Shown here in pieces: positions 1 to 41,132 of a DNA stretch of 64,000 nt. The number at the start of each line of letters is the position of its first letter. Positions within the stretch are counted from its first letter, which is position 1. The DNA is from Alphaproteobacteria bacterium (GTDB taxonomy: Bacteria > Pseudomonadota > Alphaproteobacteria > UBA8366 > GCA-2717185): the NCBI GenBank assembly GCA_028822585.1, contig JAPKDL010000005.1, positions 16,528 to 80,527 of the forward strand, given 5' to 3'. The translations under genes and the position numbers were made by a program. The notes below the pieces were generated by a model. It did not search any database and had not been told where the DNA came from. It saw only the letters and a program-made list of their open reading frames with translations.

Positions 1-360
1 GGCTGGTAGGTCCGCGCTGGACTTTTCTCAACGATTTAGTCTGACCCAATGCGGTGTGTCGCCAGCGAGAGTAATACGCCCTCGAATCCTGGGGGAAATC
101 TGCCCCGACTTGACTATCTTTTCACCCATAAGGCTATAAAAATAAAATATAATCGGTAACGCCCTCCTCGCGAAATCGATTAAATATCGGGAATTGCGGT
201 TCACCGTGTTCACTCAATTCGGCGTCGAGCCGGAATCGTCGAACAGCTACAAGCGATATATTAGGTAGGCCTCAATAAAGCGTCTGGCACACACACATCT
301 GAGGCGATAGCCTATCACATTCAACGAAATAGCGGCTCACATAACTTGAAAGATGATATC

Positions 361-1374
361 ATGGCGACGAATGACGACTGGCTTGCGCAGGTTCAGGAAG
401 ACACGATCGACCCGGGTCGCCCCATTTGCGACACACATCATCACCTTTGGGATTTCCGTGAGGGGCGAGTCGATAGCCGCTATCTAATGGAGGAACTCCA
501 GCTCGATTTACAGACCGGTCACAACATCGTCTCGACGGTGTTCGTCGACTGTCACGCCATGTACCGCGCCAGCGGCCCTGAAGAGATGCGCCCCGTCGGC
601 GAGGTCGAATTCGTTAATGGTGTGGCCGCCATGGCGGAGTCAGGCATGTATGGCGAGACGAAAGTCGCCGCCGGCATCATCAGCCACGCGAATTTAACCC
701 TGGGATCACAGGTGAAGGGCGTATTGGAAGCTTTAATTACCGCGGCACCCGATCGGTTTCGCGGCATTCGTCACAACGGCGCCTGGGACGCAGACCCAGG
801 CGTCGGAAACGCGCGCAACGTCACCGGCCCGGACTTGTACCTGGAGCCTAAATTTCGTGAAGGGTTCGCCGAACTCGAACCGCTCAGCCTTGTCTTTGAA
901 GGTGTCTGCCGCCATCCACAGCTTCCCAATTTCGTGGATTTGGCGCGCGCCTTTCCCAGCACGACTATGGTGTTGAACCATTTGGGCGGCGTCGCAGGCG
1001 TCGGCGTCTATGCAGGCAAACACGAAGAAATATTTAGTGAGTGGAAAAAGAGCATCGCCGATTTGGCTGCCTGCCCTAACATTATTATGAAACTCGGCGG
1101 CATCAATATGGAATACGCCGGTTTCGGTTGGCACGAAAAGCCCAAGCCCGCGACGAGTCAGGAACTCTGCGATGCAACGAAGCGTTATTACGAAACCGCC
1201 ATCGAACATTTCGGCCCCGACCGTTGTATGTTTGAATCGAACTTTCCCGTCGACAAGGTCAGCTGCAGCTATCACGTCTTGTGGAACGCCTTCAAGCGGA
1301 TCGCGAAAAATTATTCAGCCGAAGAACGCACCTTCCTGTTTCACGACACCGCCACGCGCGTTTATTCACTGTAA
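361..1374 (+). CDS. Amidohydrolase-2 family metal-dependent hydrolase (lactonase/decarboxylase-type TIM barrel), tandem paralog 1
   Basis: Track ORF 346..1374. It carries 'ICDTHHHLWDF' (N-terminal HxH metal motif), 'VLNHLGG' and 'CMFESNFPVDK'. I moved the start from TTG 346 to ATG 361 because 'MATNDDWLAQVQ' aligns with 'MAANDQWLAQIQ' of the next gene. Confidence 0.8.
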   Translation: MATNDDWLAQVQEDTIDPGRPICDTHHHLWDFREGRVDSRYLMEELQLDLQTGHNIVSTVFVDCHAMYRASGPEEMRPVGEVEFVNGVAAMAESGMYGETKVAAGIISHANLTLGSQVKGVLEALITAAPDRFRGIRHNGAWDADPGVGNARNVTGPDLYLEPKFREGFAELEPLSLVFEGVCRHPQLPNFVDLARAFPSTTMVLNHLGGVAGVGVYAGKHEEIFSEWKKSIADLAACPNIIMKLGGINMEYAGFGWHEKPKPATSQELCDATKRYYETAIEHFGPDRCMFESNFPVDKVSCSYHVLWNAFKRIAKNYSAEERTFLFHDTATRVYSL

Positions 1375-1388
1375 GGGAAAACGCAATC

Positions 1389-2402
1389 ATGGCGGCAAAC
1401 GACCAATGGCTCGCGCAAATCCAGGAAGATATCATCGACCCGGACCAACCCATCTGCGACCCTCACCACCATCTATGGGGCCATCGCGACGGCAATGTTG
1501 AACCGCGCTATCTGATGGAAGAGATTCAGCAGGACGTGCAAAGTGGGCACAACATCGTGGCCACGGTTTTCATTGAATGCAACGCCATGTATCGCATCAG
1601 CGGGCCCAAGGAAATGCAACCCGTGGGCGAGATCGAGTTCGTAAATGGCGTCGCCGCCATGGCGGAGTCCGGCGCATACGGCAAAACCAAAATCGCCGCG
1701 GGCATTATCGGATTTGCAGACTTGCAGCTTGGGTCGCGGGTGAAAGGCGTATTGGAAGCCCAGATCGCCGCCGCCCCCAACCGCTTTCGCGGCATCCGAC
1801 GCACCGGCGCCTGGGACGCGGACCCGGTGATCAGTAGTGGCGCCGGCGTGACGGGGCCAGGTCTGTACATGGACAATACATTTCGCGAAGGGCTGGCAGA
1901 AATTGCGCCCCTGGGTCTGATTTTCGAAGGAGTCTGCCGACATCCGCAGATTTCAGAGTTTCAAAATCTAGCCAACACCTTTCCTGATACCACAATGGTT
2001 TTGAACCACATCGGTAGCATCGCGGGCGTGGGACGTTACGCCGGAAAGCGAGACGAAATTTTCGAATCCTGGAAGAAGGACATGTTCAACCTCGCTACGT
2101 GCCCAAACGTCGTCGTGAAACTTGGCGGCATTAACCGGGATTACAACGGGTTCGGCTGGCATGAAAAACCAACGCCACCTTCCAGTCAGGAGCTTTGCGA
2201 GGCGACGAAACATTATTACGAAATCGTCATCGAATACTTTGGCGCGGATCGCTGCATGTTCGAGTCCAACTTTCCCATTGATAAAGTCAGTTGTAGCTAC
2301 GCCAGCCTGTGGAATTCATTCAAACGTGTGGCCGCGGATTGTTCAGCCAACGAACGCGCCCAACTTTTCCACGACACCGCAGCGCGGGTGTATCGGCTAT
2401 AG
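1389..2402 (+). CDS. Amidohydrolase-2 family metal-dependent hydrolase, tandem paralog 2
   Basis: Track ORF 1281..2402. The internal ATG at 1389 lies 14 nt after the paralog 1 stop and gives a colinear protein with 'ICDPHHHLWGH', 'VLNHIGS' and 'CMFESNFPIDK'. The 1281 start would overlap the upstream gene by 94 nt. Confidence 0.8.
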   Translation: MAANDQWLAQIQEDIIDPDQPICDPHHHLWGHRDGNVEPRYLMEEIQQDVQSGHNIVATVFIECNAMYRISGPKEMQPVGEIEFVNGVAAMAESGAYGKTKIAAGIIGFADLQLGSRVKGVLEAQIAAAPNRFRGIRRTGAWDADPVISSGAGVTGPGLYMDNTFREGLAEIAPLGLIFEGVCRHPQISEFQNLANTFPDTTMVLNHIGSIAGVGRYAGKRDEIFESWKKDMFNLATCPNVVVKLGGINRDYNGFGWHEKPTPPSSQELCEATKHYYEIVIEYFGADRCMFESNFPIDKVSCSYASLWNSFKRVAADCSANERAQLFHDTAARVYRL

Positions 2403-2406
2403 CCCC

Positions 2407-3663
2407 CTATTCCACAGCGCCTTTTATTGAATTCGGTGGGTTGATTTGTCGGTCGGGCACAATTGAATTCCCACCGAGATACTTCTCGTATTCGTCATCG
2501 CTGGCGCGGCAGATATCCCGCAGCATCCACAACGCCCGGCCAAACGTGGTTTCATTAAACAACCAATTCTCCACGCGCAGGCTAGCACCGTAGCCTGGCT
2601 GGGCGGTAATCGATTCGGTATAATACGCCTTCAAATCCTCGTAAGCGAGTTTCAGCACACGCCCTTTTTCTAAATCATCCCGTGGGGCGCGCGTGCTTTG
2701 ATCTTCCAGAAAATCCGCCAAAAATTTCGCCGCGGCCTTGATTTCGAGCCCGCTAGGCCCAACCGTCGTTCGGCCCCGCGAACGAACCGCCAAATCATAC
2801 CACGGCGCCAATCCATCGATTTCACCCAATAAGGCCTGGCCCAGCACGCTGGCGGGGGCGTTGGCGTCAGGAAGCTTCGGCAAGTCGATCGCACAGACCA
2901 TGCCGGTCATCGCATCTTCATCATATTCAACGCCGTCGTCGGGAACATCTTCCGTACAATCGATCAACACGGGTCCAGATTCCCGATCCAGCAATCCCAA
3001 CGCCGCCATCAACACGCGCGTTTGAAACGCGACATCGCCCGGCACGCCCAATGGCCGCCCCAGTTCGAACGGTACCCACAACGCGCGCGGCGGGTTCGTC
3101 TTTTCGGTATGGATGCGGATCAGGCTGATTTGCGTTGTCGCCAAGCCTTCTTCTTCAAATATAATAGCAAGCCCGCCAACGGCGCGCGTGCATTTCGGTC
3201 ATATGGGGACCAGTAGGACGGTGTCCACTCCGTCGGCCTTCATGGTCCTCGCCATGGCACGCGCCGACCCCGCCAAATCCGATGGGTGCGCGGCACCGGA
3301 AACCGTAAAATGGAAATCCGCGACCGATCCGATAACGCCATCATCAGCCAGTTCATGCAGACGTTCTATCGGAAAACAGACATTGAGATCCGCTTGAAAT
3401 CCAGTTCGGTCGAAGTTCACCGACGAGTGGGTCATCACCACCTCACCGGGATCAACATCGCCAGGGATCACGCGGTAATCCGTTGCGCCACGCTGATAAA
3501 CGGCGTCGTCACGTAAATTTAGCGCAGCGGTTGAAATCAGAGAAATGCGTCGTTCGCTAAGCGGCTTGGGCGTCACGAAAGGCGTACGTCCTTCGAACCC
3601 GGAACAATCCAATTCGATCATCATCTTCCGCTCACTCAGCGGTATCGTGTCCAGTCGCGCCAT
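2407..3663 (-). CDS. PrdB/GrdB-family reductase-like protein, candidate selenoprotein (track ORFs 3199..3663 and 2407..3144 joined through in-frame TGA 3199..3201)
   Basis: The two ORFs are in the same frame. Read-through gives '...DTVLLVPI-U-PKCTRAVGGLAIIFEEEGLATTQI...', a UxxC motif. 'DLNVCFPIERLHELADDGVIG' resembles clostridial PrdB as I remember it. The read-through product is 418 codons with no other stop. Confidence 0.75.
3167..3191 (-). promoter_or_regulatory. Candidate SECIS-like hairpin 7 nt downstream of the in-frame UGA
   Basis: mRNA 5'-GCACGCGCGCC-GUU-GGCGGGCUUGC-3'. It forms 9 Watson-Crick pairs with two internal mismatches, and the apical GUU loop lies about 20 nt after the UGA. 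It was folded by eye only. Confidence 0.35.
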
Positions 3664-3673
3664 ACCTACACCC

Positions 3674-4906
3674 TTAAAAATTATGTGTACGGCGCCATTG
3701 TCCCGCCAACTCCAAGACCCTGTCGATGTCTTCTTCGTTATTAAACATGTGCAACGAAAAACGAAGAATACCGCGTCGAATTGTCAACTGCACATTGTGT
3801 TCTGCTAGATAGTCATATAACGACTGCATCGCAGGATCATCCGTACCATCATGCTGACCGGTGCCGATTTCGCCCACTGCAACAAGGCCCGCCAGATGCG
3901 GCCCAGGTTCCCCGCCGCACACCGGCAGGCCAATATTTAAAAATCCACCCGCCAATCGATGGGCCAACGAGACAACGCGCGCCTCTACCTGGTCCGGTCC
4001 GATGTCCAACATCAATGTCAACGGTGGCCTGACCGCGGCCGCCGCCATAAAATTATAATTGCCCAAATCAAAGCGCCGCGCGCCGGGCATCAGCTTCCAA
4101 TCATCCCCGCCGAGTGCGGCTTCATGGGCACCTTCACCGAAATCAACACCGAACCGCGCCAAATAAGCCGGGGTCAAACGATTCGCCCAATCGTTCCGGC
4201 AATACAAAAAGCCCATGCCGTATAAACCCAACAAACCCTTTTGGGTGGAGACTGCCATGGCATCAATGTATTCCGCCGCGACATCGGTTTTCAAAACACC
4301 GACCGACTGCACCCCATCCACCAAAAACAACGCGTCATGTTCCCGACAGACCCGCCCAACGGCCGCCATGTCAGACCGGAACCCCGGTGCAAAAGTGACG
4401 CTCGACAAGGTCACCGCACGCGTATTACCGTCTATAGCGCTGATCATCTGGTCCACCGGCATGACGCCATCACCCGCCGATATTACGCGAAGCTCAACGC
4501 CAAACCGCCGCGCCGCGTGCCGCCACGGATAAACATTATTGGGGTGTTCCAAATCCAGGCACAGAACCGCGTTGTCGCCGGGGCGCCATTCGATGGCTGC
4601 GATTATCGCGTTCAATCCTTCGGAAACATTCTTAGTGATCGCGACTTCTTCCGCGCCTGCATTGATGAGTCGGGCAAAATCGCTCCGCGCGCCTTCAACC
4701 GCGTCGAACATCGCCGGTTTGTCACCCCCTTCATGCATGCGCGCATCCAGCATTGTATCGATCGCCGCACGGGAGTCCCGCATCAACAATCCACGCGCCG
4801 CCGTGTTCATGTAGGTGGATTCCACCGCACCCGGAAAGCGCTTTCGAATAGCTTCAAAATCCACGATTGCCGTACCATTCATCATAAAATCTCCCAAAAT
4901 ATACAT
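3674..4906 (-). CDS. Class V aminotransferase-fold PLP-dependent enzyme (cysteine desulfurase / selenocysteine lyase / epimerase-like)
   Basis: 410 aa. 'AVSTQKGLLGLYGMGFLY' is a PLP-lysine region typical of class V fold enzymes, and 'VYMNTAARG'-type N-terminus is present. The gene ends 10 nt before the PrdB-like start. The start could also be a nearby internal Met. Confidence 0.7.
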   Translation of the reverse strand: MYILGDFMMNGTAIVDFEAIRKRFPGAVESTYMNTAARGLLMRDSRAAIDTMLDARMHEGGDKPAMFDAVEGARSDFARLINAGAEEVAITKNVSEGLNAIIAAIEWRPGDNAVLCLDLEHPNNVYPWRHAARRFGVELRVISAGDGVMPVDQMISAIDGNTRAVTLSSVTFAPGFRSDMAAVGRVCREHDALFLVDGVQSVGVLKTDVAAEYIDAMAVSTQKGLLGLYGMGFLYCRNDWANRLTPAYLARFGVDFGEGAHEAALGGDDWKLMPGARRFDLGNYNFMAAAAVRPPLTLMLDIGPDQVEARVVSLAHRLAGGFLNIGLPVCGGEPGPHLAGLVAVGEIGTGQHDGTDDPAMQSLYDYLAEHNVQLTIRRGILRFSLHMFNNEEDIDRVLELAGQWRRTHNF

Positions 4907-5734: not shown

Positions 5735-6781
5735 CTACCATTCGGTCGCGAACCCTTTGAAGGGCGACGCGATTTTTTGAATGTCCTGGACCAAATCAGG
5801 CGTTAGGTCTGGGGATGTATCCGGCGCCGCAATCGCGCTAACGGAATCACTTAACCCACCGAAACGATCTTCAATGGCCTTGGCGATTTCATCGTGGCGC
5901 CCCACGGCGGCGAACAGATGCACCACCTCATCTGACACTTCCGCCGCCATTTCATCCCATTTCCCCGCCTTCGACAACCGGTGTAGCTTGCCGCCAAGTT
6001 CGGTCAAACCATGCAGTTCGAACACCGGCCAATAGGTCCGCGTCGAACCGTAAAATGCTACACGGTACCTTACATATTCAAATATCTTGTCGACGGTTTC
6101 CTGATCCGGTCCAGTGACGATAAATCCGCCGCCAGAAATTTCAAAATTCTCCCGGGTCAAATTTGATTTTTCCAGCCCTTCGCCGACCCGTTTCATCACC
6201 ACTTCTTCCACGTAACGTCGGGTACAGAACGGATGCAATTGCGCGCCATCGCAGTATCGACCCGCCACCCGAAGCATCGCCGGACCCACCGCCGCAATGG
6301 TGATCGGCGTCATCGGCAAGTTAGTCTTCTCCGGTACAAAATGCGGTGTCATCAAGGTAAAGCGATAATGTTCACCAACGTAATCGAGCGGCTCCCCATT
6401 TTCCCAGCACCGCCAGATGGCGCGCAAGGCTTGGACATATTCCTTCATACGCGGCGCCGGCGGCGTCCAGGGTGCGCTGAACCGGCGTTCATTATGGCCT
6501 TTCACCTGACTGCCCAGCCCCAGCTTAAATCGCCCGCTCGACGCCAATTGCAGGTCATGCGACATGTTGGCCACTGCCATCGGGCTGCGCGCAAACGCGA
6601 TGGCGATGCCGGTCATCAATTGGACGCATTCCGTTGTCGTCGCTGCAATGGCGAGCGGCAGGAACGGGTTGTTCGAATTCTCCATCGTGCTGACGGCGTC
6701 GAACCCAGCCGCTTCCGCCGCTTGCGCTGCTGGCGTTGTCTGATTCAGGTTTTCTTGTTGCAACCCCGTGGTAACCCGCAT
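5735..6781 (-). CDS. Luciferase-like monooxygenase (LLM) family oxidoreductase, F420/flavin-dependent type
   Basis: 348 aa. 'GRFKLGLGSQVKGHNERRF' and the overall LLM-like layout were recognised by eye. Confidence 0.7.
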   Translation of the reverse strand: MRVTTGLQQENLNQTTPAAQAAEAAGFDAVSTMENSNNPFLPLAIAATTTECVQLMTGIAIAFARSPMAVANMSHDLQLASSGRFKLGLGSQVKGHNERRFSAPWTPPAPRMKEYVQALRAIWRCWENGEPLDYVGEHYRFTLMTPHFVPEKTNLPMTPITIAAVGPAMLRVAGRYCDGAQLHPFCTRRYVEEVVMKRVGEGLEKSNLTRENFEISGGGFIVTGPDQETVDKIFEYVRYRVAFYGSTRTYWPVFELHGLTELGGKLHRLSKAGKWDEMAAEVSDEVVHLFAAVGRHDEIAKAIEDRFGGLSDSVSAIAAPDTSPDLTPDLVQDIQKIASPFKGFATEW

Positions 6782-6850
6782 TGTCTAATTCCTCACGTTT
6801 GATATTATTCTCTCATATTCTAAAGTGTCGAAGTAGAGGGATCACGCACT

Positions 6851-7876
6851 ATGACCACAATGAAATATGGTTTGTTTGTCCGCAGCCAATACCCCGAAGG
6901 TGACGACATGGCCGTTCGCTTCGAAGAGCTTATGGTGCAGGCGCGGTTGGCCGAAAAAATCGGCTTCTCCAGCATCCTCAAAGGCCAGCACTACGCCGGA
7001 TACCCGTTGCAGGAATTACAGCAGGTGCCCTTCCTCGCCCGCGTCATGACCGAGTGTCCTTCCCTCAGCCTGATCACCGGCGTCGTATTGTTATCGCTAC
7101 ACAAACCTCTCGACATCGCCGAACAACTCGCGACCTTGGACATTATGTCGAAAGGCCGTCTGATCTTCGGTGCCGGGCTAGGGTACCGCGATGTTGAATT
7201 AAAGGCGTTCGGTACCAATATGGCGGAACGCGCCTCCCGGTTTGAAGAAAATCTGGACGCTATCATACAACTCTGGACCAACCCCCCGGTGACGATGAAG
7301 GGCTCGCATTTTGAACTCGACAATGTCACCCCGTCGAGCCGCCCGGTGCAAAAGCCGCGCCCGCCGATCTGGATTGGGGCCAATGCCGACGTTGCCGTGG
7401 AACGCGCAGCACGCCTGAGCGACGCCTGGTTCATCAATCCACACCAGCGTCTGGACACCATTGAACGCCAACTGGACGTCTACAAACGTGCCCTCGACGC
7501 CGCCGACAAACCCTTCCCCGACGAGCTTCCGCTAATGCGCGAATTATTCGTCGCCCCAACGCGGGAGGAAGCGAAACGTCTCGCCCAGCCCTACCTGGAA
7601 GAGAAGTACAAAATTTACGCCCAATGGGGCCAGAACAAAGCCATGCCGGATGGCGACAACGACCTCTCCATGACCTTCGACGAACTGGCCGATGGCCGCT
7701 TCATTTTTGGCTCTCCGGACGAAGTGACCGAACAAATCATACGCTTTAACAAAACCTTAGGTGCCAACCACCTCGTCTTTAGTCCACACTGGGTCGGCAT
7801 GCCCAATAACCTGGTTCTCGACATGATGAACATCATGGCCGAAGAGGTCCTGCCCCAAGTCGCGCAAGCGCTGTGA
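6851..7876 (+). CDS. LLM class flavin-dependent oxidoreductase
   Basis: 341 aa. 'SKGRLIFGAGLGYRDVELKAFG' and 'PPIWIGA' are typical of luciferase-like monooxygenases. The gene is divergent from 5735..6781. Confidence 0.75.
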   Translation: MTTMKYGLFVRSQYPEGDDMAVRFEELMVQARLAEKIGFSSILKGQHYAGYPLQELQQVPFLARVMTECPSLSLITGVVLLSLHKPLDIAEQLATLDIMSKGRLIFGAGLGYRDVELKAFGTNMAERASRFEENLDAIIQLWTNPPVTMKGSHFELDNVTPSSRPVQKPRPPIWIGANADVAVERAARLSDAWFINPHQRLDTIERQLDVYKRALDAADKPFPDELPLMRELFVAPTREEAKRLAQPYLEEKYKIYAQWGQNKAMPDGDNDLSMTFDELADGRFIFGSPDEVTEQIIRFNKTLGANHLVFSPHWVGMPNNLVLDMMNIMAEEVLPQVAQAL

Positions 7877-14867: not shown

Positions 14868-16553
14868 CTAATCTCCGCCTCCATAGTATTCCGCCAGATA
14901 TGCCGCGCTGAATTTTTCGCTGCGCCGATCTTCCTCGACATGTTGAGGGTCGCGTTTCGACGGTTTGCCATAACCGCCAGCGCCGGGGGTTTCGACCACA
15001 ATTTTTTCGCCCGGCCCAACGCGGATGCCCGCCGGTTTAATTTCCAACTGGACTGCCGCACCCTCAACTGCAACATGCTGAAAGTGACCCGAAGCGCCCG
15101 GCGCGCCGCCAAAAATACCCCAGGGCTGGTTGCGGAACCGTTCCCCCGCGCCGTTGAAGTCACAAGTATGGCCGACCGTTGATATGACCCGGCGCAGTCC
15201 CATGCCACCGCGAAATTCCCCAGCCCCGCCAGAATCTTCTACGAAACCGTAGCTTTCAACCAGCAGCGGGTATTCCATTTCGATGGCTTCCACGGGCAGG
15301 TTCGACGTGTTGGTAATGTGCACCTGGACACCGTCTGTACCGTCGCGGTCATTGCGCCCACCAAAACCACCACCCAAGGTTTCCAGGTACAGATATCCCA
15401 CCCCCGTGTTCGGATCGATGCCGGAAAACACCGCCGTCACATTCGCTCCGTTGGAGGCGCCCACGGCGGCGTCAGGCAACGCATCCGCCAGCGCGCCAAT
15501 GATGATGTCGGCAACCCGTTGGCAGGTATTTGCGCGGGCGGCGACTGTCGCCGGAGCAACACAATCCAGCAACGTTCCCTTTTCCGTCGTAATTTTACAC
15601 ACGTCCAATACCCCCTGATTGTTGGGAATATCCGGATCGACCAGCGCCTTCAGAGAATAACATACCGATGCCTGGGTCGCATTGTCGGTCAAATTTATAT
15701 TGCCCAGAACCTGTGGCGATGTGCCGGTGAAATCGAAATGGATTTGGTCTCCTGCTTTTTCAATGCGCAATTTTATGGGAATATCAATAGCGCCCAATCC
15801 ATCGTCGTCCATCACGTCCTCGAAGATGTATTCGCCATCAGGAATCGTTGCGATGGCGGCGCGCATACGTCGCTCCGTTCGGACGACAATGTCTTTAAAT
15901 GCGACGCGCACCACGTCATTTCCGTAGGTGCCAGTAATTTCAGCCAACCGCCGTGCGCCCAACCGGCAGGACGCAATCTGAGCGTAATAATCGCCGCGGC
16001 GTTCTTCGGGCAGGCGGACATTCAACAAGATTAAATCCAGGAGATCCTGTTGCAGTTCGCCTTTGCGGAACAATTTCAGCACAGGAATACGGAGGCCTTC
16101 CTGATAAATTTCCGACATGCCGCCCGCCATCGACCCCGGCGCCATACCGCCGATATCTGCGTGGTGCGCGATATTGCAGACAAAGGCGATGATTTCACCT
16201 TCCGAAAACACCGGCATCGCCATGTTAACGTCGGGCAGATGCGTGCCACCAGCGACATGAGGGTCATTGGCTATGAACAAATCGCCGTCTTCAATCTCGT
16301 TGAGTGGGTATTTCAACAACAAACATTTCATCAGGCCAATCATCGAGGCTAAATGAATCGGCAGGGAATTTTCCGCCTGAACAATCAAACCGCCGCGCAC
16401 ATCACATATTGCCGTGGAGTGATCTCGACGTTCCTTGATGTTGGTCGAATAGGCGCTGCGCATCAGCGCTATATAAGTCTCGTCAGTGACGGAGCGCAGC
16501 GCATTGAACAAAATTTCAAGCGTAATTGAATCAAGTGTGGGTGAGGTGCTCAT
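14868..16553 (-). CDS. hyuB: Hydantoinase B/oxoprolinase family protein (pair 1, beta)
   Basis: 561 aa with 'FIANDPHVAGGTHLPDVN'. Its start overlaps the stop of the upstream A subunit by 4 nt. Confidence 0.8.
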   Translation of the reverse strand: MSTSPTLDSITLEILFNALRSVTDETYIALMRSAYSTNIKERRDHSTAICDVRGGLIVQAENSLPIHLASMIGLMKCLLLKYPLNEIEDGDLFIANDPHVAGGTHLPDVNMAMPVFSEGEIIAFVCNIAHHADIGGMAPGSMAGGMSEIYQEGLRIPVLKLFRKGELQQDLLDLILLNVRLPEERRGDYYAQIASCRLGARRLAEITGTYGNDVVRVAFKDIVVRTERRMRAAIATIPDGEYIFEDVMDDDGLGAIDIPIKLRIEKAGDQIHFDFTGTSPQVLGNINLTDNATQASVCYSLKALVDPDIPNNQGVLDVCKITTEKGTLLDCVAPATVAARANTCQRVADIIIGALADALPDAAVGASNGANVTAVFSGIDPNTGVGYLYLETLGGGFGGRNDRDGTDGVQVHITNTSNLPVEAIEMEYPLLVESYGFVEDSGGAGEFRGGMGLRRVISTVGHTCDFNGAGERFRNQPWGIFGGAPGASGHFQHVAVEGAAVQLEIKPAGIRVGPGEKIVVETPGAGGYGKPSKRDPQHVEEDRRSEKFSAAYLAEYYGGGD

Positions 16554-18616
16554 GGCGCAATCTCAATAATTAGGTTCAATTGGATATCGACAGTGGCGAG
16601 GTCGCCGGGATGCACGACTGTGGTGGTGTCCAGTTGGCCGATAATGGCCGGTCCAGCGATGGCGTCGCCCGCGCGCAACGCGGCGCGATCATAAAGCGGC
16701 GTATCGTCAGCATTATCCGCATCGAAATATACCAACCGACGGCCTACCGGCGTAGGATCTCCACCTTCTGAAACTTCGCCAGCTGGCGCCTCATCTGGTT
16801 TACGAAGCCGCCCCCGCGCGGTCAGGCGGAAATTGACCACCTCCACCGGGTCATCGGGATTATGAAAGCCATAGCTCTGTTCGTGCGCTTCAAAGAATAA
16901 TTTTTTCATGCGTGCAACATCCGGCAAATGTAGCGCCCGCTCTGCGCCCTCAACCTGATCGACAGCGACGCCCAATTCAAAATTCTGCCCGACATAGCGC
17001 ATGTCGATGACAAGATCGAGACGACGCGCGTCCGGTTCAACGCCTTCATCGGCAAACCACGCCGCCGCGTCTTTCGCCAGTCCTTCCACACGCCCGGCCA
17101 TTTCAGCAACGGCATCATCTGCCACAAGGGTCCGGGCACTGGCGACAAAATTTTCCTTTAAATCGGACACGACTAACCCTTGCGCGCACAAAATTCCTGG
17201 CGCGGCGGGCACGATAACTTGCCCAACGCCCAGCGCCCGCGCCACGTCGACCGCATGCAACGGTCCCGCCCCGCCAAGCGGCATTAATGCGAAACGCCGG
17301 GGATCATGACCACGTTCAATGGAGATCACCCGGATCGCGCGCACCATATTGGCTACAACTATGCCCAACACCCCATGCGCCGTGCGTTCAACCGTATACC
17401 CCAACTGATCCGCCAAAGGCCGCAACGCATTGGTCGCAGCCACCTTATCCAGCCCCATGGAGCCGCCCAACAGACCGTCTTCGGACAAGCGCCCCAGAAC
17501 AAGATTGGCGTCCGATACGGTCGGCTCGGTTCCCCCCATGCCATAACACGCAGGTCCGGGGTCAGCCCCGGCGCTGGCCGGGCCCACCTTCAACAACCCG
17601 TCGCGGTCGAACCAGGCGATGGACCCGCCGCCGGCCCCCACCGTGTGGACATCGACCATCGGCAAACGGATCGGGAATTCCGCAATGCTTTGGTCGAAAT
17701 TAACGCTCGCCTCGCCATTGCGGATCAAACAGACATCGGCGCTGGTGCCGCCCATATCCAGCGTCACCACATCGGGTCGACCTGCGGCGCGTCCAATATG
17801 CCCTGCCCCCACGACGCCCGCCGCCGGACCGGACAGCGCGGTGCGGATTGGATAAACGCAGGCGCGGTCCGCCGACATCAACCCGCCGCTAGATTGGTTG
17901 ATTCCCAATTTTGCATCCGGTGCCAACGTCGATAGTTCGTCCTGAAGAAACGTCATGTAGCGACTGACCAACGGCTGCAAATAGGCGTTCAGTACGGTGG
18001 TCGAAAAGCGTTCGTATTCGCGAAATTCCGGCTGCACATCTGACGATAATGACACGTCTACGCCCGGCACCGCTTTGCGCAACGCCACGCCGATACGGTT
18101 TTCATGTTCGGGGTTCACGAACGCGAACAGCAAACACACTGCAACGGCTTTTACGTCAGCTTCGACAATTTGAGCCACGACCGCATCAATCGCCGCATCG
18201 TCGAGCGGTTTGATCACTTGGCCCTTGGCGCCTATGCGTTCGGAAATTTCAAACCGTTGGTGCCGCGGTGCCAGAGGTTGCGGATAATCCGCCTTCAAGT
18301 CATAGAGTTTGGGTCGAATTTGACGTCCAATTTCCAACAGATCGCGGAACCCTTCGGTGGTGATCAGGGCGACCGGCGTGCCACGTCGCTGGATCAGCGC
18401 GTTGGTAGCCACCGTGGTCCCATGCGCCAACCGTGCGATGGAACCCGGAGCAATCGCCTGGGCCTCGCACAAATCTCGGAGTCCCTGGAGGATAGCCGCG
18501 CCCGGATTGTCCGGCGTGGAGGGCGTTTTGTGGACACAACACCGCCCTGACGCATCATCGAAGGCGAAAAAATCCGTGAACGTACCGCCAACGTCACATC
18601 CAACATACCAAGCCAT
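16550..18616 (-). CDS. hyuA: Hydantoinase A/oxoprolinase family protein (pair 1, alpha)
   Basis: 'WYVGCDVGGTFTDFF' is the N-terminal ATPase motif, and 'LDMGGTSADV' is also present. I chose ATG 18616 ('MAWYVG'), which has AAGGA upstream. The track start 18682 would overlap the previous gene. Confidence 0.8.
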   Translation of the reverse strand: MAWYVGCDVGGTFTDFFAFDDASGRCCVHKTPSTPDNPGAAILQGLRDLCEAQAIAPGSIARLAHGTTVATNALIQRRGTPVALITTEGFRDLLEIGRQIRPKLYDLKADYPQPLAPRHQRFEISERIGAKGQVIKPLDDAAIDAVVAQIVEADVKAVAVCLLFAFVNPEHENRIGVALRKAVPGVDVSLSSDVQPEFREYERFSTTVLNAYLQPLVSRYMTFLQDELSTLAPDAKLGINQSSGGLMSADRACVYPIRTALSGPAAGVVGAGHIGRAAGRPDVVTLDMGGTSADVCLIRNGEASVNFDQSIAEFPIRLPMVDVHTVGAGGGSIAWFDRDGLLKVGPASAGADPGPACYGMGGTEPTVSDANLVLGRLSEDGLLGGSMGLDKVAATNALRPLADQLGYTVERTAHGVLGIVVANMVRAIRVISIERGHDPRRFALMPLGGAGPLHAVDVARALGVGQVIVPAAPGILCAQGLVVSDLKENFVASARTLVADDAVAEMAGRVEGLAKDAAAWFADEGVEPDARRLDLVIDMRYVGQNFELGVAVDQVEGAERALHLPDVARMKKLFFEAHEQSYGFHNPDDPVEVVNFRLTARGRLRKPDEAPAGEVSEGGDPTPVGRRLVYFDADNADDTPLYDRAALRAGDAIAGPAIIGQLDTTTVVHPGDLATVDIQLNLIIEIAP

Positions 18617-18647
18617 TCGTTTTCCTTTAAAGCTACATACGCTTGAT

Positions 18648-19823
18648 CTACCCGAGTCGGTAGTCGAGCCCATCCTTCGCACAAACGCCAGGATGGTTCG
18701 CTAGATTTTTCATGTCCAGATCGATCCCGAGCCCTGGCGCGCCAGAGAGATGAAACTTGCCATCGGCGATTCGATGCCCGCAATCCTGCACAACTGAGTC
18801 ATAGAGCGGCGTTTCACCGACTTGCAATTCAAGCCAACTAAAGTTGGACAACCCGACGCAAGCATGCGCAGACGCCGCCGTGCAAACAGGTCCCGTCGGG
18901 TTATGCGGCGCGATGGTCATCGAAAATCCTGCGGCAGCGCTCGCAATCGCATGAATACCAGCGATCCCACCGCAATACTTAACGTCCGGCATCAACACAT
19001 CATGAGACTCGGCGGCACCGAATATCCCGACATCGCGCGCTGACACCATGGTCTCGCATCCCGACGTAATAATTCCATGCGGCGCGGCCAATTTTCGCAA
19101 CTTCGCCCACCCTGCCAAAGCGTCGCCATGTTCTGACATCGGACACTCGATCCAGTGCGGACGAAGCGGGGCTAATTGTGCGACCAGCGCCTCCACATCG
19201 TCCGCGCCAAGCCGCCAATGGCAATCGATCAACAAGGCCGTTTCCACGCCAATGGCACCGCGAATTGCGGCGACCCTTTCGACGCCCACTCTAATGCGCC
19301 GATTACGTTCAGAATCATCCATTTCAGCCTTGGCTATGCCGCTGGGCAAAACACCATCAAACGGCGCGATCTTCACCGCGGCGAAACCCGCATTCAACGC
19401 ATCCGTTGCTTGTTTCGCACAGCCTTCGGGTGACCGGTCCCGCGTCGCGCGGTTGATGTTGGCATAAAGCAAAATTTCCTGGCGTTGACTCGGTCCAAAA
19501 TAGTCATGCGCCGGACGCCCCGCGCGCTTGCCCCAAATATCGTTCAACGCCTGTTCGATTGCACTCGACGCCGCATGCCACGCCCGACCGCCGGCCGCAT
19601 GCGGTTGAGGAACCAACAGGCGCCGTGCGACGTCTTCCAGCATCCCGCGCAAATCTTCCGCCCGCCGTTCAACGGCCAACTTTACGAAATCCTCGTACCC
19701 ATTCAAACTCGCCTCGCCCCACCCATAGAGGCCATCTTCCGAGGTCACCTTTACAAAAATCCAATTCGTGCGAGCCGATACGCCGAAAACAAACGCTTCA
19801 ATAGCCTCGATTTTATTTGTCAT
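18648..19823 (-). CDS. Enolase-superfamily enzyme (mandelate racemase/muconate lactonizing family; acid-sugar dehydratase-like)
   Basis: 391 aa. 'NWIFVKVTSEDGLYGWGEASL' is an N-terminal capping-domain motif typical of GalD/ManD-like members. Confidence 0.75.
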   Translation of the reverse strand: MTNKIEAIEAFVFGVSARTNWIFVKVTSEDGLYGWGEASLNGYEDFVKLAVERRAEDLRGMLEDVARRLLVPQPHAAGGRAWHAASSAIEQALNDIWGKRAGRPAHDYFGPSQRQEILLYANINRATRDRSPEGCAKQATDALNAGFAAVKIAPFDGVLPSGIAKAEMDDSERNRRIRVGVERVAAIRGAIGVETALLIDCHWRLGADDVEALVAQLAPLRPHWIECPMSEHGDALAGWAKLRKLAAPHGIITSGCETMVSARDVGIFGAAESHDVLMPDVKYCGGIAGIHAIASAAAGFSMTIAPHNPTGPVCTAASAHACVGLSNFSWLELQVGETPLYDSVVQDCGHRIADGKFHLSGAPGLGIDLDMKNLANHPGVCAKDGLDYRLG

Positions 19824-23903: not shown

Positions 23904-26339
23904 ATGTCAAAACCTCTTCCCGGCCATGCCCGCGTTGTCATCATTGGCGGCGGCGTGGCCGGGTGCGCCGTGGCCTATCATCTAGCAAAAATAGGCATCA
24001 CCGATGTCGTGCTGATGGAGCGAAAGCAACTGACCAGCGGCACCACCTGGCACGCCGCTGGTCTGATCGGACAATTGCGCGCCACCAAAAACCTGACAGA
24101 GCTGGCGAAATACACCGCCGAACTCTACGCCAATCTGGAAGCTGAAACCGGACAGGCGACGGGCTTCAAACAAAACGGCTCCCTAAGTCTCGCCACAACG
24201 CATGAACGATTGGAGGAATGGCGGCGCGCCGCCGATATGGCAAAAGTCTTTGGATTAGAGGTGGAAGAGGTCAGCCTCGCCGAAGCGCAAGCACTGCACC
24301 CGTTGATCAATGTGGACGATCTGGTCGGCGCCGTCTTCCTGCCGAAAGACGGACAGATCAACCCCGCTGACGTGACGCAAGCTATGGCAAAGGGCGCGCG
24401 CAGCGCCGGAATTGGCATATTTGAGAACATCAAGGTCACGGCAATCACCCAGAAGGATAGCCGGGTCACTGGCGTACGCACAGACCAAGGCGATATCACC
24501 TGCGATGTGATCGTCAATTGCGCGGGCATGTGGGGCCAGGATGTCGGCGCGATGGCGGGTGTCGGCGTGCCCCTGCACGCCTGTGAACATTTCTATGTGG
24601 TGACCGAACCTATCGAGGGTGCAACCCCCACCCTGCCTGTGCTGCGCGACCAGGACAATTACGCCTATTACAAGGAAGACGCCGGAAAAATTTTGCTTGG
24701 CGCCTTCGAGCCCAACGCAAAGCCTTGGGGCATGGACGGCATTTCCAACGATTTCTGCTTCGATGAAATACCCCCGGACATCGACCACTTCATGCCGGTG
24801 TTGGAACGCGCCATCAAGCGTATGCCCGCACTGGAAACGGCCGGGATCCGCACCTGGTTCTGCGGCCCGGAAAGTTTCACCCCGGACGACCGCTACCATC
24901 TGGGCGAAGCACCCAACCTGAAAGGATTCTTCATCGCCTGTGGATTCAACTCCATCGGCATCCAATCAGCGGGCGGCGTTGGCAAGGTGCTGGCGGATTG
25001 GATCAAGGACGGCCATCCGCCCCTGGATTTATGGGACGTGGATATCCGCCGCAACATGCCGTTCCAGACCAACTGCAAATATCTACACGACCGGGTCACC
25101 GAAGGCCTGGGTTTACTCTACGCGGAACATTGGCCGTTCCGGCAATACGAGACTGCGCGCGGCGTGCGCAAGTCAGTCCTGCATGATCGCCTGGCCAAGG
25201 TGGGCGCTTGTTTTGGGGAAACCGCAGGCTGGGAACGCGCCAACTGGTTCGCCCCAAAAGGCGTCGCGCCCGTGTATGAATATTCTTACGGACGGCAAAA
25301 TTGGTTCGACCACTCTGCCGCCGAACACAATGCGGTGCGGGAAAATATTGGCCTGTTCGACTTAACCTCTTTTGCTAATTTTACAGTACAAGGATCTGAT
25401 TCTAAAGCAACTTTAAACAAAATATGCGCCAACAATGTTGATGTCGCGCCGGGCCGGACCATCTACACCCAATGGCTCAATGAACGCGGCGGCATCGAAG
25501 CCGACTTGACCGTCACCCGCATCGCCGAAGATGAATATTTCATCGTCACGGCAGGTGCGACGCAAATTCGCGACTTCCAGTGGCTGAAGGATCACATCGG
25601 CGACGCCCGCGCTACGGTAACGGACGTAACGGCAGGATACGCGGTGCTGGCGATCATGGGACCCAACGCACGCACTTTTCTCGCCACGATCACCGGCGCC
25701 GACCTTTCCAACGACGCCTTCCCATTTGGCGCCAGTCAGGAGATTGACATCGGATACGGGCGCGTGCGCGCAACACGGCTGTCCTATGTCGGCGAATTGG
25801 GCTGGGAACTCTATATTCCCACCGACATGGCCCAACACGTATACGACGTAATCGTGGAAGCGGGCGCGGCGTTCGAATTAAAACATGCGGGATATCACGC
25901 ACTAAATTCCCTGCGCATCGAAAAAGCCTACCGCCATTGGGGTCACGACATCACCGACGAAGACACCCCGTTGGAAGCCGGACTGGGTTTCGCGGTGGCG
26001 TGGGACAAACCGGGCGGTTTCATCGGTCGCGACGTCCTCTTGCGTCAACGCGAAGACGGCGTGCGCAAATGCCTGATGCAATTCCTGCTGAGCGACCCCA
26101 CCAAACTGCTGTACCACAACGAACCCATCTGGCGCGAAGGTGCGTTGGCGGGATACATCACGTCCGCTATGTACGGCCACACGCTGGGCGGCTCCGTAGG
26201 GCTCGGCTACATCACCGGCGAACCGGGCGACGACTCGCTCACCGGCGCCTACGAAATCAGCGTTGCGGGTGAACGCGTCCCAGCGGCAGCATCGCTACGC
26301 CCCATGTATGACCCGGCGAGCAAGCGGCTGCGGGGGTAG
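23904..26339 (+). CDS. FAD-dependent oxidoreductase fused to GcvT-type aminomethyltransferase domain (dimethylglycine/sarcosine dehydrogenase family)
   Basis: 811 aa. 'VVIIGGGVAGCAVAYHLAK' is a dinucleotide-binding motif. The C-terminal half has folate-binding GcvT-like segments ('GLFDLTSF', 'SYVGELGWELY'). Confidence 0.85.
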   Translation: MSKPLPGHARVVIIGGGVAGCAVAYHLAKIGITDVVLMERKQLTSGTTWHAAGLIGQLRATKNLTELAKYTAELYANLEAETGQATGFKQNGSLSLATTHERLEEWRRAADMAKVFGLEVEEVSLAEAQALHPLINVDDLVGAVFLPKDGQINPADVTQAMAKGARSAGIGIFENIKVTAITQKDSRVTGVRTDQGDITCDVIVNCAGMWGQDVGAMAGVGVPLHACEHFYVVTEPIEGATPTLPVLRDQDNYAYYKEDAGKILLGAFEPNAKPWGMDGISNDFCFDEIPPDIDHFMPVLERAIKRMPALETAGIRTWFCGPESFTPDDRYHLGEAPNLKGFFIACGFNSIGIQSAGGVGKVLADWIKDGHPPLDLWDVDIRRNMPFQTNCKYLHDRVTEGLGLLYAEHWPFRQYETARGVRKSVLHDRLAKVGACFGETAGWERANWFAPKGVAPVYEYSYGRQNWFDHSAAEHNAVRENIGLFDLTSFANFTVQGSDSKATLNKICANNVDVAPGRTIYTQWLNERGGIEADLTVTRIAEDEYFIVTAGATQIRDFQWLKDHIGDARATVTDVTAGYAVLAIMGPNARTFLATITGADLSNDAFPFGASQEIDIGYGRVRATRLSYVGELGWELYIPTDMAQHVYDVIVEAGAAFELKHAGYHALNSLRIEKAYRHWGHDITDEDTPLEAGLGFAVAWDKPGGFIGRDVLLRQREDGVRKCLMQFLLSDPTKLLYHNEPIWREGALAGYITSAMYGHTLGGSVGLGYITGEPGDDSLTGAYEISVAGERVPAAASLRPMYDPASKRLRG

Positions 26340-36265: not shown

Positions 36266-37132
36266 CTACGCAACAGCCATATCTGAAACGCCCAGGGGAA
36301 CTTCCCCCACGACGGTGACGCGCTGCATGTGGCGGCGATGGCCCGAATAATCGTTCAACGCGTTATGCAGTACACAGCGATTGTCCCAAAATGCTACCGA
36401 ATCCTTTCGCCACCGCAGACGGCAAGTGAATTCCGGTTTGACCGCGTGGGCGCCAAGAAATTTTAACAGCGGGCGGCTTTCCGCCTCACTCCACCCTTTA
36501 ACGCCAATTGTGTATATGTCGTTGATAAACAGACAGCGTCGCCCGGTGTCCGCATGCACCCGGATGAACGGGTGTTCCCACGTCGATTCCGACGTCTCAT
36601 CCGCTTCAATTGTCATCGCCGCGCGGCTACGACTGGCAATGGCTTTTGCGGAATAGGACCGGCGTGGACTGTGGATCGCCGTCAACCCATCCAGCATGTC
36701 TTTCATGCCGCTGGACAAGGTTTCATAGGCCAGATGCAAGTTTGAAAACATCGTGTCGCCACCGACGGCGGGCACCTCCCGCGCGTATAGTATGGAGCCT
36801 AAGGGCGGTTCCCGCTTAAAGCTGAAATCAGAATGCCAGGCGCCACCGAAATTGACTTCGTCCCGCGCGGTTTTGACGACTTCGATAATAGCCGGGTAGT
36901 CATCCATCCCCTTCACAAAGGGCGCGATGTCCAAGTCACCGAACCGTCGGCCAAACGCCAAAAGCTGTTCCGGCGTCATGTTCTGGTCGCGGAACATGAT
37001 CACCAAGTGGTCGCGAAACGCCTGTTTGACTTCCGCAAAGGTTTCATCGTCGAGATTGGCGAGATCAACGCCGCCAATTTCGGCGCCCATGGCACCGGAT
37101 ATCGGCGATACGGCAAGTCGTTTATAGATCAT
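36266..37132 (-). CDS. TauD/TfdA family Fe(II)/2-oxoglutarate dioxygenase (tandem copy 2)
   Basis: 288 aa with 'WHSDFSFKREPPLGSILYAREVPAVGGDTMFSN' (HxD plus the TauD core). Confidence 0.85.
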   Translation of the reverse strand: MIYKRLAVSPISGAMGAEIGGVDLANLDDETFAEVKQAFRDHLVIMFRDQNMTPEQLLAFGRRFGDLDIAPFVKGMDDYPAIIEVVKTARDEVNFGGAWHSDFSFKREPPLGSILYAREVPAVGGDTMFSNLHLAYETLSSGMKDMLDGLTAIHSPRRSYSAKAIASRSRAAMTIEADETSESTWEHPFIRVHADTGRRCLFINDIYTIGVKGWSEAESRPLLKFLGAHAVKPEFTCRLRWRKDSVAFWDNRCVLHNALNDYSGHRRHMQRVTVVGEVPLGVSDMAVA

Positions 37133-37165
37133 ATTCTGCTCTCATAAATTGATACATTCTATGTG

Positions 37166-38008
37166 CTATACAGGCCGTTCCCCGGTGATAGACAAACGAT
37201 ACATTTCCCGCCGATGACCATGATAATCATTCACCGCCAGATGCTGAGCCGCGCAATTATCCCACACCGCCAGCACGTTGGGTTCCCACTGATAGCGGCA
37301 CGTAAATTCCGGGCGCTGCTGGCATTGATACAAATATTCCAGCAACGGCTGGCTTTCAGCGTCAGTCCAGCCTTCGATCCGCGCGGTGTGCAAGGCGTCC
37401 ACATATATCACCTTGCGACCATTGATCGGGTGGGTGCGCACCAAAGGATGCGCCGCTTCCAGCACCGCTTTATCATGGCCAGACAATTTAACGCTTTGAT
37501 ATGAATTTCCCACCGCGCGGCCCCCACCTCTTCGCACCGCCGTACTGTGGACCGCACGCAATCCGGCCAGGGTTTCCTTCAACCCGTCAGATAGCGCGTC
37601 ATAGGCCAGGTACATATTGGCGAACAAGGTGTCTCCGCCCGCTGGCGGCGTCTCCACCGAATACAACGCCGTCGCCTTGGGCGGGATGTCGGCGTAGGTG
37701 GTGTCGGTGTGCCAGCCTTCACCAAAATTCTTGGTTTCATGCGGTTCTTTGACCAGGGAGAACACACGGGGTTCTTCGGGCAGACCCGGTGAAAAGGGAT
37801 ATTTTCCAACCGGCCCAAAATGACTGACAACATCCGCCAACGCCGTCGGGTTGAGAGTCTGGCCAGGGAAAAACAACGCGATCCTATCCAGATAAAGCGC
37901 GTGGATTTCATCCCAAACATCGTCGCTCGCGTTCGCCAAATCAACGCCGCGCACCTCCGCGCCAATGGCACCGCTCAACGATTGGTGATCAATATATCTG
38001 TAATTCAT
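37166..38008 (-). CDS. TauD/TfdA family Fe(II)/2-oxoglutarate dioxygenase (tandem copy 1)
   Basis: 280 aa with 'WHTDTTYADIPPKATALYSVETPPAGGDTLFAN'. Confidence 0.85.
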   Translation of the reverse strand: MNYRYIDHQSLSGAIGAEVRGVDLANASDDVWDEIHALYLDRIALFFPGQTLNPTALADVVSHFGPVGKYPFSPGLPEEPRVFSLVKEPHETKNFGEGWHTDTTYADIPPKATALYSVETPPAGGDTLFANMYLAYDALSDGLKETLAGLRAVHSTAVRRGGGRAVGNSYQSVKLSGHDKAVLEAAHPLVRTHPINGRKVIYVDALHTARIEGWTDAESQPLLEYLYQCQQRPEFTCRYQWEPNVLAVWDNCAAQHLAVNDYHGHRREMYRLSITGERPV

Positions 38009-40358: not shown

Positions 40359-41132
40359 ATGGACGACGCGCTTACCAAAACAATCGAAGCCTTTCGCCTG
40401 GATGGCCTCCAGGGGGTCGTAACCGGGGCATCTCGTGGTCTGGGGAAAGGCTGCGCACTGGCGCTGGCGGGCGCCGGGGCGGATGTTACGGTGATCGGGC
40501 GCAATCAGGTGGATTTGGACTCCGTCGCGGAAGAAATTCGCGCCGTGGGTCGGAAAGCAACCGTCATCACGGTCGATGTGACCAATATCGATTTGTTTGC
40601 AGACAAGCTCGGCGAACTATCTCGCATTGATATTTTCGTCAACAACGCCGGGACGAACCGTCCACAGCCGTTCTTGTCGGTCGATCCGGAAACCTATGAC
40701 GCCCTGATGGATGTAAACTTACGCGGCGCGTTTTTCGCAGCCCAGGCGGCGGCGCGGATGATGGTGGCGGCGAAACGCGGTGGGTCGATCATTAACATGT
40801 CCAGTCAGGCGGGACACCGCGCGCTGCGCGACCGAACCGTCTATTCCGCCAGTAAATTCGGATTGGAAGGCTTGACCAAGGCGATGGCCTTTGAATTGGC
40901 GGAACATAGCATCCGCGTCAATGCGGTGGCGCCAACCTTTGTCGAAACTCCCTTGGCCAACCAGTTCCTGCAAAATAAGGACTTTCGGAATTATGTCGAA
41001 GGCAAGATCAGACTACCCCGGCTTGGACAAGTCGACGACGTCGCGGCGGCGGTGCTGTATCTCGCGTCTCCCGCTGCTTCCATGGTCACGGGGACGTCGC
41101 TGCTAGTGGATGGCGGCTGGACGATTCACTGA
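40359..41132 (+). CDS. SDR family oxidoreductase
   Basis: 257 aa with 'VTGASRGLGKGCA' and 'YSASKFG'. Confidence 0.85.
   Translation: MDDALTKTIEAFRLDGLQGVVTGASRGLGKGCALALAGAGADVTVIGRNQVDLDSVAEEIRAVGRKATVITVDVTNIDLFADKLGELSRIDIFVNNAGTNRPQPFLSVDPETYDALMDVNLRGAFFAAQAAARMMVAAKRGGSIINMSSQAGHRALRDRTVYSASKFGLEGLTKAMAFELAEHSIRVNAVAPTFVETPLANQFLQNKDFRNYVEGKIRLPRLGQVDDVAAAVLYLASPAASMVTGTSLLVDGGWTIH

Follow-up and report, generated by a model that had tools for sequence, protein, structure and literature searches.

A gene called in two pieces on an alphaproteobacterial contig is predicted to encode one selenoprotein of the GrdB/PrdB superfamily

Among the described relatives of the gene treated here are the clostridial D-proline reductase subunit PrdB (TIGR04483; Kabisch et al. 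1999), a protein of 26 kDa (PMC13188914), and the GrdB, GrdF and GrdH proteins (PF07355, TIGR01917, TIGR01918, NF040794 and NF040795). UxxC, where U is selenocysteine (Sec), is the listed motif for both PrdB and GrdB, and UxxCxxC serves as a criterion for GrdB-type proteins (PMC13188914). Surveys of marine DNA have filed a further family under the name 'Proline reductase PrdB', with 42 genes in the Sargasso Sea (Zhang, Fomenko & Gladyshev 2005) and 235 Sec forms and 110 Cys forms, assigned to pfam07355 and carrying UxxC, in the Global Ocean Sampling (GOS) data (Zhang & Gladyshev 2008); it is among the most abundant marine selenoproteins in both. In a survey of 2006, 'proline reductase' appears among the selenoproteins of Anaeromyxobacter (A. 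dehalogenans) and Geobacter (G. uraniireducens). We analysed a 64,000-nucleotide stretch (hereafter the window) of contig JAPKDL010000005.1 from an Alphaproteobacteria bacterium (assembly GCA_028822585.1), on whose minus strand two open reading frames (ORFs) are separated by an in-frame UGA. We put the probability at about 90% that 2407..3663(-) is one gene for a 418-residue protein in which this UGA encodes Sec.

Is this a new selenoprotein? Its kind is already known, because the supplements of the 2005 and 2008 surveys list the same family. They hold sequences such as 'LLVPVUPNCTRAVGGLGHYFESEGI...PPRALWVPFELGRPFG...EDLKAYYYESVLAQPG', which share with the window gene the same signature, long C-terminus, UxxC motif, Pfam assignment and marine origin. 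There is no essential difference: the window gene adds one more member, with 79-82% identity to public orthologs from metagenome-assembled genomes (MAGs) that are unannotated or split. The selenoprotein gene itself raises no new question and will not surprise specialists. What is new in the present analysis is quantified constraint on the selenocysteine insertion sequence (SECIS), linkage to sel genes, and evidence against the PrdB name.

The frame 2407..3663(-) comprises 419 codons; it closes with TAG, and the only stop within it is TGA 3199..3201, at codon 155. In the ORF list its parts appear as 3199..3663(-), of 154 residues, and 2407..3144(-), of 245 residues. The original prediction, made from the DNA letters and this list, held that the two share a frame and that reading through the UGA gives 418 codons without a further stop; our retranslation agrees, with the junction peptide ...DTVLLVPI-[UGA]-PKCTRAVGGLAIIFEEEG... 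The N-terminus, MARLDTIPLSERK, aligns with the start of full-length homologs (MV(R/K)L.D.P..ER), and the gene is collinear from end to end with Cys homologs of 405-433 residues.

When one genome was scanned for each bacterial and archaeal species, at least 581 relatives came to light, and the best 80 (among the L-numbered loci) were examined. TGA stands at the exact UGA column in 80/80, and the flanks P[VI]-U-PxCT.AVG are kept on both sides. These 80 come from MAGs of Alpha-, Beta- and Gammaproteobacteria, Dehalococcoidia/SAR202 and Desulfobacterota (including Geobacter) and represent at least four phyla; the closest among the matches listed, at 82% identity, are Rhodospirillaceae, within the Alphaproteobacteria. 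The gene is present on the complete chromosomes OZ245851 (L019), OZ242258 (L014), CP070694 (L047) and OZ219856. Five tandem paralogs also carry TGA in the same column. An independent metagenome contig from the Joint Genome Institute (L091) is 99.82% identical to window positions 1..3321, with 6 mismatches, and has the same TGA and the same downstream hairpin. The tandem pairs lie in L025 (TGA at 8459 and 9688), L029, L030, L072 (6582 and 7859) and L009 (792 and 2042), and in each pair both genes have an in-frame TGA and a hairpin of their own.

At the protein level, 5.8 billion proteins were searched with the product in which U had been replaced by C. Close relatives (54-79% identity) are all about 250 residues long and start just past the UGA; more distant ones (38-48% identity) have 369-433 residues and are nearly or fully full-length. 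In all 12 of the full-length homologs a Cys occupies the UGA column, within the motif PV-C-PxC-(T/S)-R, which bears out the Sec/Cys column expected at residue 155. Nor do homologs end at the UGA: conservation is strong beyond it. The window's Sec also aligns to the Sec of another PF07355 selenoprotein, Sargasso entry AACY01202822. The closest Cys form, P0049 (L081 6001-7110, on contig JAMYGG010186929), is 48% identical and has TGC in place of TGA. Downstream, its hairpin matches that of the window (3154..3201) at nearly every base, and its sequence suggests that it is probably a recent Sec-to-Cys conversion with a relic SECIS. Because L081 has TGC yet the same downstream sequence, Sec/Cys switches do occur in this family.

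The bacterial SECIS (bSECIS) consensus calls for a loop of 3-9 nucleotides (nt), a stem of 4-16 base pairs, a G in the first two loop positions, a UGA-to-loop distance of 16-37 nt and a minimum free energy (MFE) of <= -7.5 kcal/mol (PMC13188914). In the window the MFE structure of the local RNA is a hairpin at 3167..3191(-) that begins 7 nt past the UGA. It agrees with the consensus in all four respects, having a GUU loop, 18 nt from UGA to loop, -14.8 kcal/mol and a stem of nine pairs (four above a G.G mismatch, and two core and three outer pairs below it). Like the elements described by the bacterial model (Zhang & Gladyshev 2005, per PMC13188914), it is a stable hairpin in the coding region, with a small loop that starts G-U and lies at 18 nt. 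The hairpin of the original prediction is thus present as described, GUU loop and 7-nt spacing included; its 25-nt form is not significant by itself, and the conserved unit is the 17-nt core at 3171..3187.

That core emerges from a gapless alignment of the 48 nt from the TGA on, in 86 sequences (83 distinct), in which column n corresponds to window position 3202-n. The core stem has seven stacked positions, six of them pairs and one the G.G mismatch; the loop is G-U-N across the family, and the whole sits within codons for T-R-A-V-G-G. Under the proposed structure 79.4% of cells form a pair; in controls with the 3' partners offset by 1-3 columns the figure is 35-47%. Most Sec forms pair 6-7 of the 7 core positions. 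None of 500 shuffles reached the observed covariation score. At pair 16-30, 70 sequences have C-G and 7 have U-A; this switch alters both bases and includes a synonymous Gly replacement, GGG to GGA. Third-codon positions in the stem have entropies of 0.16-0.59 bits, as against 1.62-1.82 bits in the loop and flanks (Table 1). By wobble constraint and by compensation, the hairpin is under RNA-level selection. The codon for the partner Cys158 begins with T and G (columns 10-11) in every one of the 83 distinct sequences, and its third base (column 12) is either C or T. The three outer pairs are probably not essential, to judge from the alignment, because they are conserved only in part.

The G.G mismatch (window 3173 and 3185, columns 29 and 17) is kept in 61 of the 83 distinct sequences and is G-C in 16; where conserved, it could be a feature that SelB recognizes. 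In E. coli fdhF the minimal element is a 17-nt upper stem-loop 11 nt from the UGA, with a loop that is larger than a triloop and has a bulged U. The window hairpin is unrelated to it in sequence and has a triloop, and the G.G mismatch is common in the window family. The signature …ACG-CGC-GCC-GUN-GGC-GGG… is usable to recover and correctly join genes that have been split in this way.

Genes for Sec decoding accompany several of the relatives. In about 1.2 Mb of the 80 related loci, tRNA-Sec accounts for 6 of 9 tRNA genes, each within a few kb of the gene, and SelB, SelA and/or SelD are encoded within 8 kb of it in L032, L035, L037, L039, L040, L052 and L061. The order in L032 (1290-9203) is selA, selB, tRNA-Sec, an S-adenosylmethionine (SAM)-methyltransferase gene, a SelD-like gene and then the PrdB-like gene. 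A pattern scan also found tRNA-Sec in MAG OFTM273, the same assembly as L002, one of the two closest orthologs among the matches listed (82% identity), with MAG binning as a caveat. From these sequences we infer that the source organism itself would insert Sec. Following bacterial Sec decoding in general, UGA codon 155 would be decoded by Sec-tRNA(Sec), delivered by GTP-bound SelB on the 17-nt G+C-rich hairpin.

Several points weigh against reading the UGA as Sec. The window contains no selA, selB or selD (55 ORFs scanned) and no tRNA gene, although 64 kb is uninformative for a multi-Mb genome. The hairpin of this single sequence is no evidence, because shuffles fold as well as it does (z = 0.37; 124 of 200 dinucleotide shuffles of this G+C-rich RNA fold equally well or better); its significance comes from the comparative data alone. 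Conservation of the hairpin largely overlaps that of the peptide CTRAVGG, so that the argument for RNA-level selection rests on the wobble sites and a few compensatory changes, and some of the latter, being in related sequences, may trace back to one change shared by the Dehalococcoidia clade. The Cys forms are a weak control: the closest keeps the hairpin, and of three distant ones two still pair 5 of the 7 core positions and the third pairs 1. Rfam returned neither a SECIS match nor another credible RNA family, whether the whole window was searched at gathering thresholds or 3050..3300 at E <= 10; this was not counted as disproof because bacterial SECIS elements are poorly covered by models. 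Finally, the enzymatic mechanism outlined below is drawn by analogy to GrdB and PrdB only, and neither a solved structure nor a conserved operon points to a substrate.

To which family does the protein belong? The proposed match to PrdB/GrdB stands at the level of the superfamily. Searched with Cys in place of U, the product passes the gathering threshold of Pfam PF07355 (GRDB) by a small margin (24.3 bits against a cutoff of 22, residues 83-152), and it matches the NCBIfam PrdB model TIGR04483 with E 1.3e-24 over residues 32-224, spanning the UGA. The closer assignment does not stand: TIGR04483 gives 87 bits where its equivalog cutoff demands 300, and the cutoffs for GrdB, GrdF and GrdH are likewise missed (TIGR01917, 21.3 vs 602 bits; TIGR01918, 30.3 vs 65; NF040794, 36 vs 800; NF040795, 44.5 vs 775). 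By these models the protein is a member of the GrdB/PrdB superfamily that fails the tests for PrdB or GrdB proper. Its homology to GrdB, GrdF and GrdH is weak and lies around the Sec region, the GrdH hidden Markov model (HMM) aligning window residues 82-184 with model positions 273-377. The 270-residue N-terminal part of GrdB is missing from the window protein, whose motif U155-P-K-C158 continues as U-P-K-C-T-R-A, without the third Cys of UxxCxxC; nor are grdA, grdE or grdC genes present in the window. The GRDB match (window 3208..3414) extends to position 345 of the 347 in the model, which leaves it three residues short of the Sec, and the Pfam model seems to end at the UGA.

The alternative that survives best is that this is a genuine PrdB subunit of D-proline reductase, with PrdA encoded elsewhere in the genome. 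TIGR04483 is the best-scoring named HMM, over 193 residues, the UxxC motif is as listed for PrdB, and the literature files the family there. Clostridial PrdB and the window protein share homology across some 190 residues, the Sec position among them, and both presumably carry out selenol/thiol redox chemistry. However, besides the shortfall against the equivalog cutoff, clostridial PrdB has about 240 residues whereas the window protein has 418, with an extra helical C-terminal domain of about 160 residues that is found only in the window family. Clostridial PrdB has its PrdA partner and a prd operon, and the window gene has neither nearby, though PrdA could be encoded at a distance: a Pfam scan of the 55 window ORFs found no PrdA/GrdE-type pyruvoyl gene, and no PrdA-type partner recurs in the flanks of the 80 loci or figures in the 25 Pfam families seen most often in 144 flanking genes, the neighbourhoods consisting of unrelated catabolic genes. 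The hosts of the window family are largely of aerobic or non-fermentative lineages, unlike those of clostridial PrdB, and many (Rhodospirillaceae, SAR202, Betaproteobacteria) are not Stickland fermenters. We therefore regard a true PrdB as unlikely. Because there is no PrdA-type pyruvoyl partner, the enzyme is probably not a D-proline reductase, and on the same sequence comparisons the name 'PrdB' is probably a misnomer.

What the enzyme might be instead is evenly balanced in our judgement. It may be a self-contained selenoenzyme of mostly aerobic marine and freshwater heterotrophs, combining in a single polypeptide a PrdB-like UxxC domain, an invariant linker Cys and a helical domain found nowhere else; the chances that this is so, and that the family is misnamed in this sense, seem to us about equal to the chances that it is not. 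The family is widespread, with its at least 581 genomic relatives, yet the function assumed from its name is not supported (no PrdA, an extra domain, non-fermentative hosts). If it is indeed misnamed, one of the most abundant selenoproteins of the ocean would be without a known function.

The remaining alternatives concern the UGA itself. Two separate genes, for a 154-residue protein ending at the UGA and a 245-residue protein starting from TTG 3144, would correspond to the public gene calls, which split essentially all relatives in this way, and a 154-residue truncated product is in any case expected whenever Sec insertion fails. Yet the 18 codons from the UGA to that TTG, the next possible start (PKCTRAVGGLAIIFEEEG), belong to the most strongly conserved parts of the protein, and one of them encodes the partner Cys; the Cys-form homologs run on without a break for 405-433 residues; and the called starts of the C-terminal fragments vary, from 21 to 156 nt past the TGA. 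We consider this arrangement very improbable. That standard callers would split the gene had been foreseen, and essentially all close relatives are in fact stored in public data as pieces of about 250 residues labelled 'hypothetical protein'; on our reading, a true selenoprotein gene is here cut in two. When 1.84 billion representative proteins were searched with the C-terminal domain, 492 clusters were returned, of which the best 150 were all <=291 residues and were post-UGA fragments of the window family, never another architecture. Because the GRDB model stops near the UGA, the post-UGA halves are stored at about 250 residues and the best 150 C-terminal matches are so short, the sequence records suggest that public gene calls truncate this family systematically. 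The N-terminal halves are labelled GRDB and the post-UGA halves have no Pfam domain (public records P0001-P0120 and P0121-P0270).

A reassigned UGA (to Trp or Gly), or read-through by near-cognate Cys or Trp insertion, deserves hardly any weight. In its favour, none of the Sec machinery lies in the 64-kb window, and low-level insertion of Trp or Cys at Sec-UGA codons is known in selenium-scarce bacteria. But TGA is confirmed as an ordinary stop at 7874..7876 and 41130..41132, the two sites named in the original prediction, and it ends 10 of 45 Pfam-supported window genes, so that the genetic code of the window is standard and recoding is site-specific, as had been proposed, and not part of a variant code. 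Also opposed to reassignment are the G+C content of 52-59%, the homologs that align Cys at this position and not Trp or Gly, the RNA-selected hairpin at bSECIS distance, and the sel and tRNA-Sec genes beside the gene in relatives. Further candidates with an in-frame TGA in the window were rejected; all lie within ORFs that run off-frame or antisense to Pfam-supported genes, and none is convincing.

Least credible of all is a pseudogene or a sequencing or assembly error, in which the TGA would be a nonsense mutation or a miscalled Cys codon (TGC or TGT): it is true that TGA is one base from TGC and that the L081 Cys form differs at exactly that base with the downstream sequence kept, but the TGA recurs in 80/80 loci, five paralogs and an independent assembly that has 6 other mismatches, which argues against error, and the protein is strongly conserved past the TGA with no other disruption of the frame. 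Conservation of the TGA and of the flanking protein in the 80 loci, the paralogs and L091 makes the pseudogene, sequencing-error and two-gene explanations untenable.

For a Sec-containing enzyme of this superfamily, homology to GrdB and PrdB suggests that the selenol of U155 would be the nucleophile or reductant that attacks or reduces the substrate; Cys158 would then resolve the adduct to a selenenylsulfide, which cellular thiols would re-reduce. An AlphaFold model was made of P0080, a natural Cys homolog from Falsiroseomonas selenitidurans that is 45% identical, with a 36-sequence alignment (predicted local distance difference test score [pLDDT] 86; predicted template modelling score [pTM] 0.86). 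In this model the CxxC lies between strand 150-154 and helix 158-173, and reactive Cys or Sec residues usually sit at such a strand-to-helix junction. The N-terminal domain also contains an invariant block, R183...PPRALWVPFELGRPLG.P.D..FQ. Linker blocks 241-260 form the sole low-confidence stretch of the model (pLDDT 59-65) and hold the equivalent of Cys257; the linker segment is probably flexible. As a mechanistic speculation, Cys257 might serve as a relay thiol, or it might be where the chain is processed, as the precursor of a pyruvoyl group. Its processing to pyruvoyl, as in PrdA and GrdE, is a long shot; if it did occur, a single chain would provide the carbonyl as well as the selenol, which in clostridia reside on two proteins. 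The C-terminal domain is modelled as seven helices (residues 268-403). No solved relative was found with phmmer, with the 36-sequence profile or with Foldseek on the P0080 model, and for this reason no function was inferred from structure.

Table 1. Positions of the predicted selenoprotein gene, its parts and the adjoining gene in the window, with wobble entropies of the hairpin alignment
Feature	Position	Strand	Remarks
Predicted complete selenoprotein gene	2407..3663	-	ATG at 3663, 418 sense codons, Sec codon 155, TAG 2407..2409
UGA codon 155, read here as Sec; first residue of U-P-K-C redox motif	3199..3201	-	Cys/TGA column in homologs
Cys158 codon UGC, partner Cys of UxxC motif	3190..3192	-	Cys in all full-length protein homologs
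N-terminal PrdB/GrdB-like alpha/beta domain (~residues 1-235)	2959..3663	-	PrdB and GrdH HMMs; U155-x-x-C158
Cys257 codon, interdomain linker	2893..2895	-	Invariant in 17 and in 36 aligned sequences
Predicted all-helical C-terminal domain, family-specific (~residues 260-418)	2410..2886	-	No Pfam, NCBIfam or PDB match
Core hairpin, putative bSECIS	3171..3187	-	17 nt, begins 11 nt past UGA, loop G-U-U at 3178..3180
Extended hairpin (core and three outer pairs)	3167..3191	-	Outer pairs 11-35, 12-34 and 13-33 in 62, 73 and 29 of 83 sequences
Class-V pyridoxal phosphate (PLP) enzyme	3674..4906	-	Pfam Aminotran_5; stop 10 nt before selenoprotein ATG
Wobble entropy, stem, column 15 (Thr ACN)			0.44 bits
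Wobble entropy, stem, column 18 (Arg CGN)			0.16 bits
Wobble entropy, stem, column 21 (Ala GCN)			0.48 bits
Wobble entropy, stem, column 27 (Gly GGN)			0.26 bits
Wobble entropy, stem, column 30 (Gly GGN)			0.59 bits
Wobble entropy, loop, column 24 (Val GUN)			1.76 bits
Wobble entropy, flank, column 6 (Pro CCN)			1.62 bits
Wobble entropy, flank, column 33 (Leu CUN)			1.80 bits
Wobble entropy, flank, column 36 (next codon)			1.77 bits

No conserved partner gene emerged when the ORFs up to 6 kb away were clustered all-versus-all across 81 loci, nor did the Pfam scan of the 144 flanking genes reveal one. In the window the selenoprotein gene is the last of four same-strand genes running from 6831 to 2407(-) with gaps of 42, 42 and 10 nt; the others encode an F420/LLM-class oxidoreductase (5735..6831(-); TIGR03617, 386 bits), an enoyl-CoA hydratase and the class-V PLP enzyme. 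The best promoter-like site, 6831..6804 (10/12 matches), is upstream of the oxidoreductase gene. This row may be an operon specific to the source genome. The PLP gene and the selenoprotein gene are possibly co-transcribed, because the stop of the former is so close to the ATG of the latter. Among NCBIfam models the PLP enzyme scores best with SufS (105 bits against a cutoff of 475), and it scores 50 bits with SclA, which suggests a distant relationship to cysteine desulfurases and Sec lyases. The pairing is not conserved in relatives, being seen in L008 only, at 31% identity. An apparent synteny of oxidoreductase and hydratase genes with the closest Cys form was discarded, since the genes are not orthologous.

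The window is rich in catabolic genes (14868..18682, 50905..54608, 23904..26339 and 36266..38008), a content typical of a marine heterotroph. They include two hydantoinase/oxoprolinase A+B pairs, a DAO-GCV_T fusion of the dimethylglycine/sarcosine-dehydrogenase type, two adjacent TauD-family dioxygenases, and several amidohydrolase_2, SDR and CoA-transferase genes. TauD genes also adjoin Cys-form homologs of the selenoprotein on contigs L085-L090.

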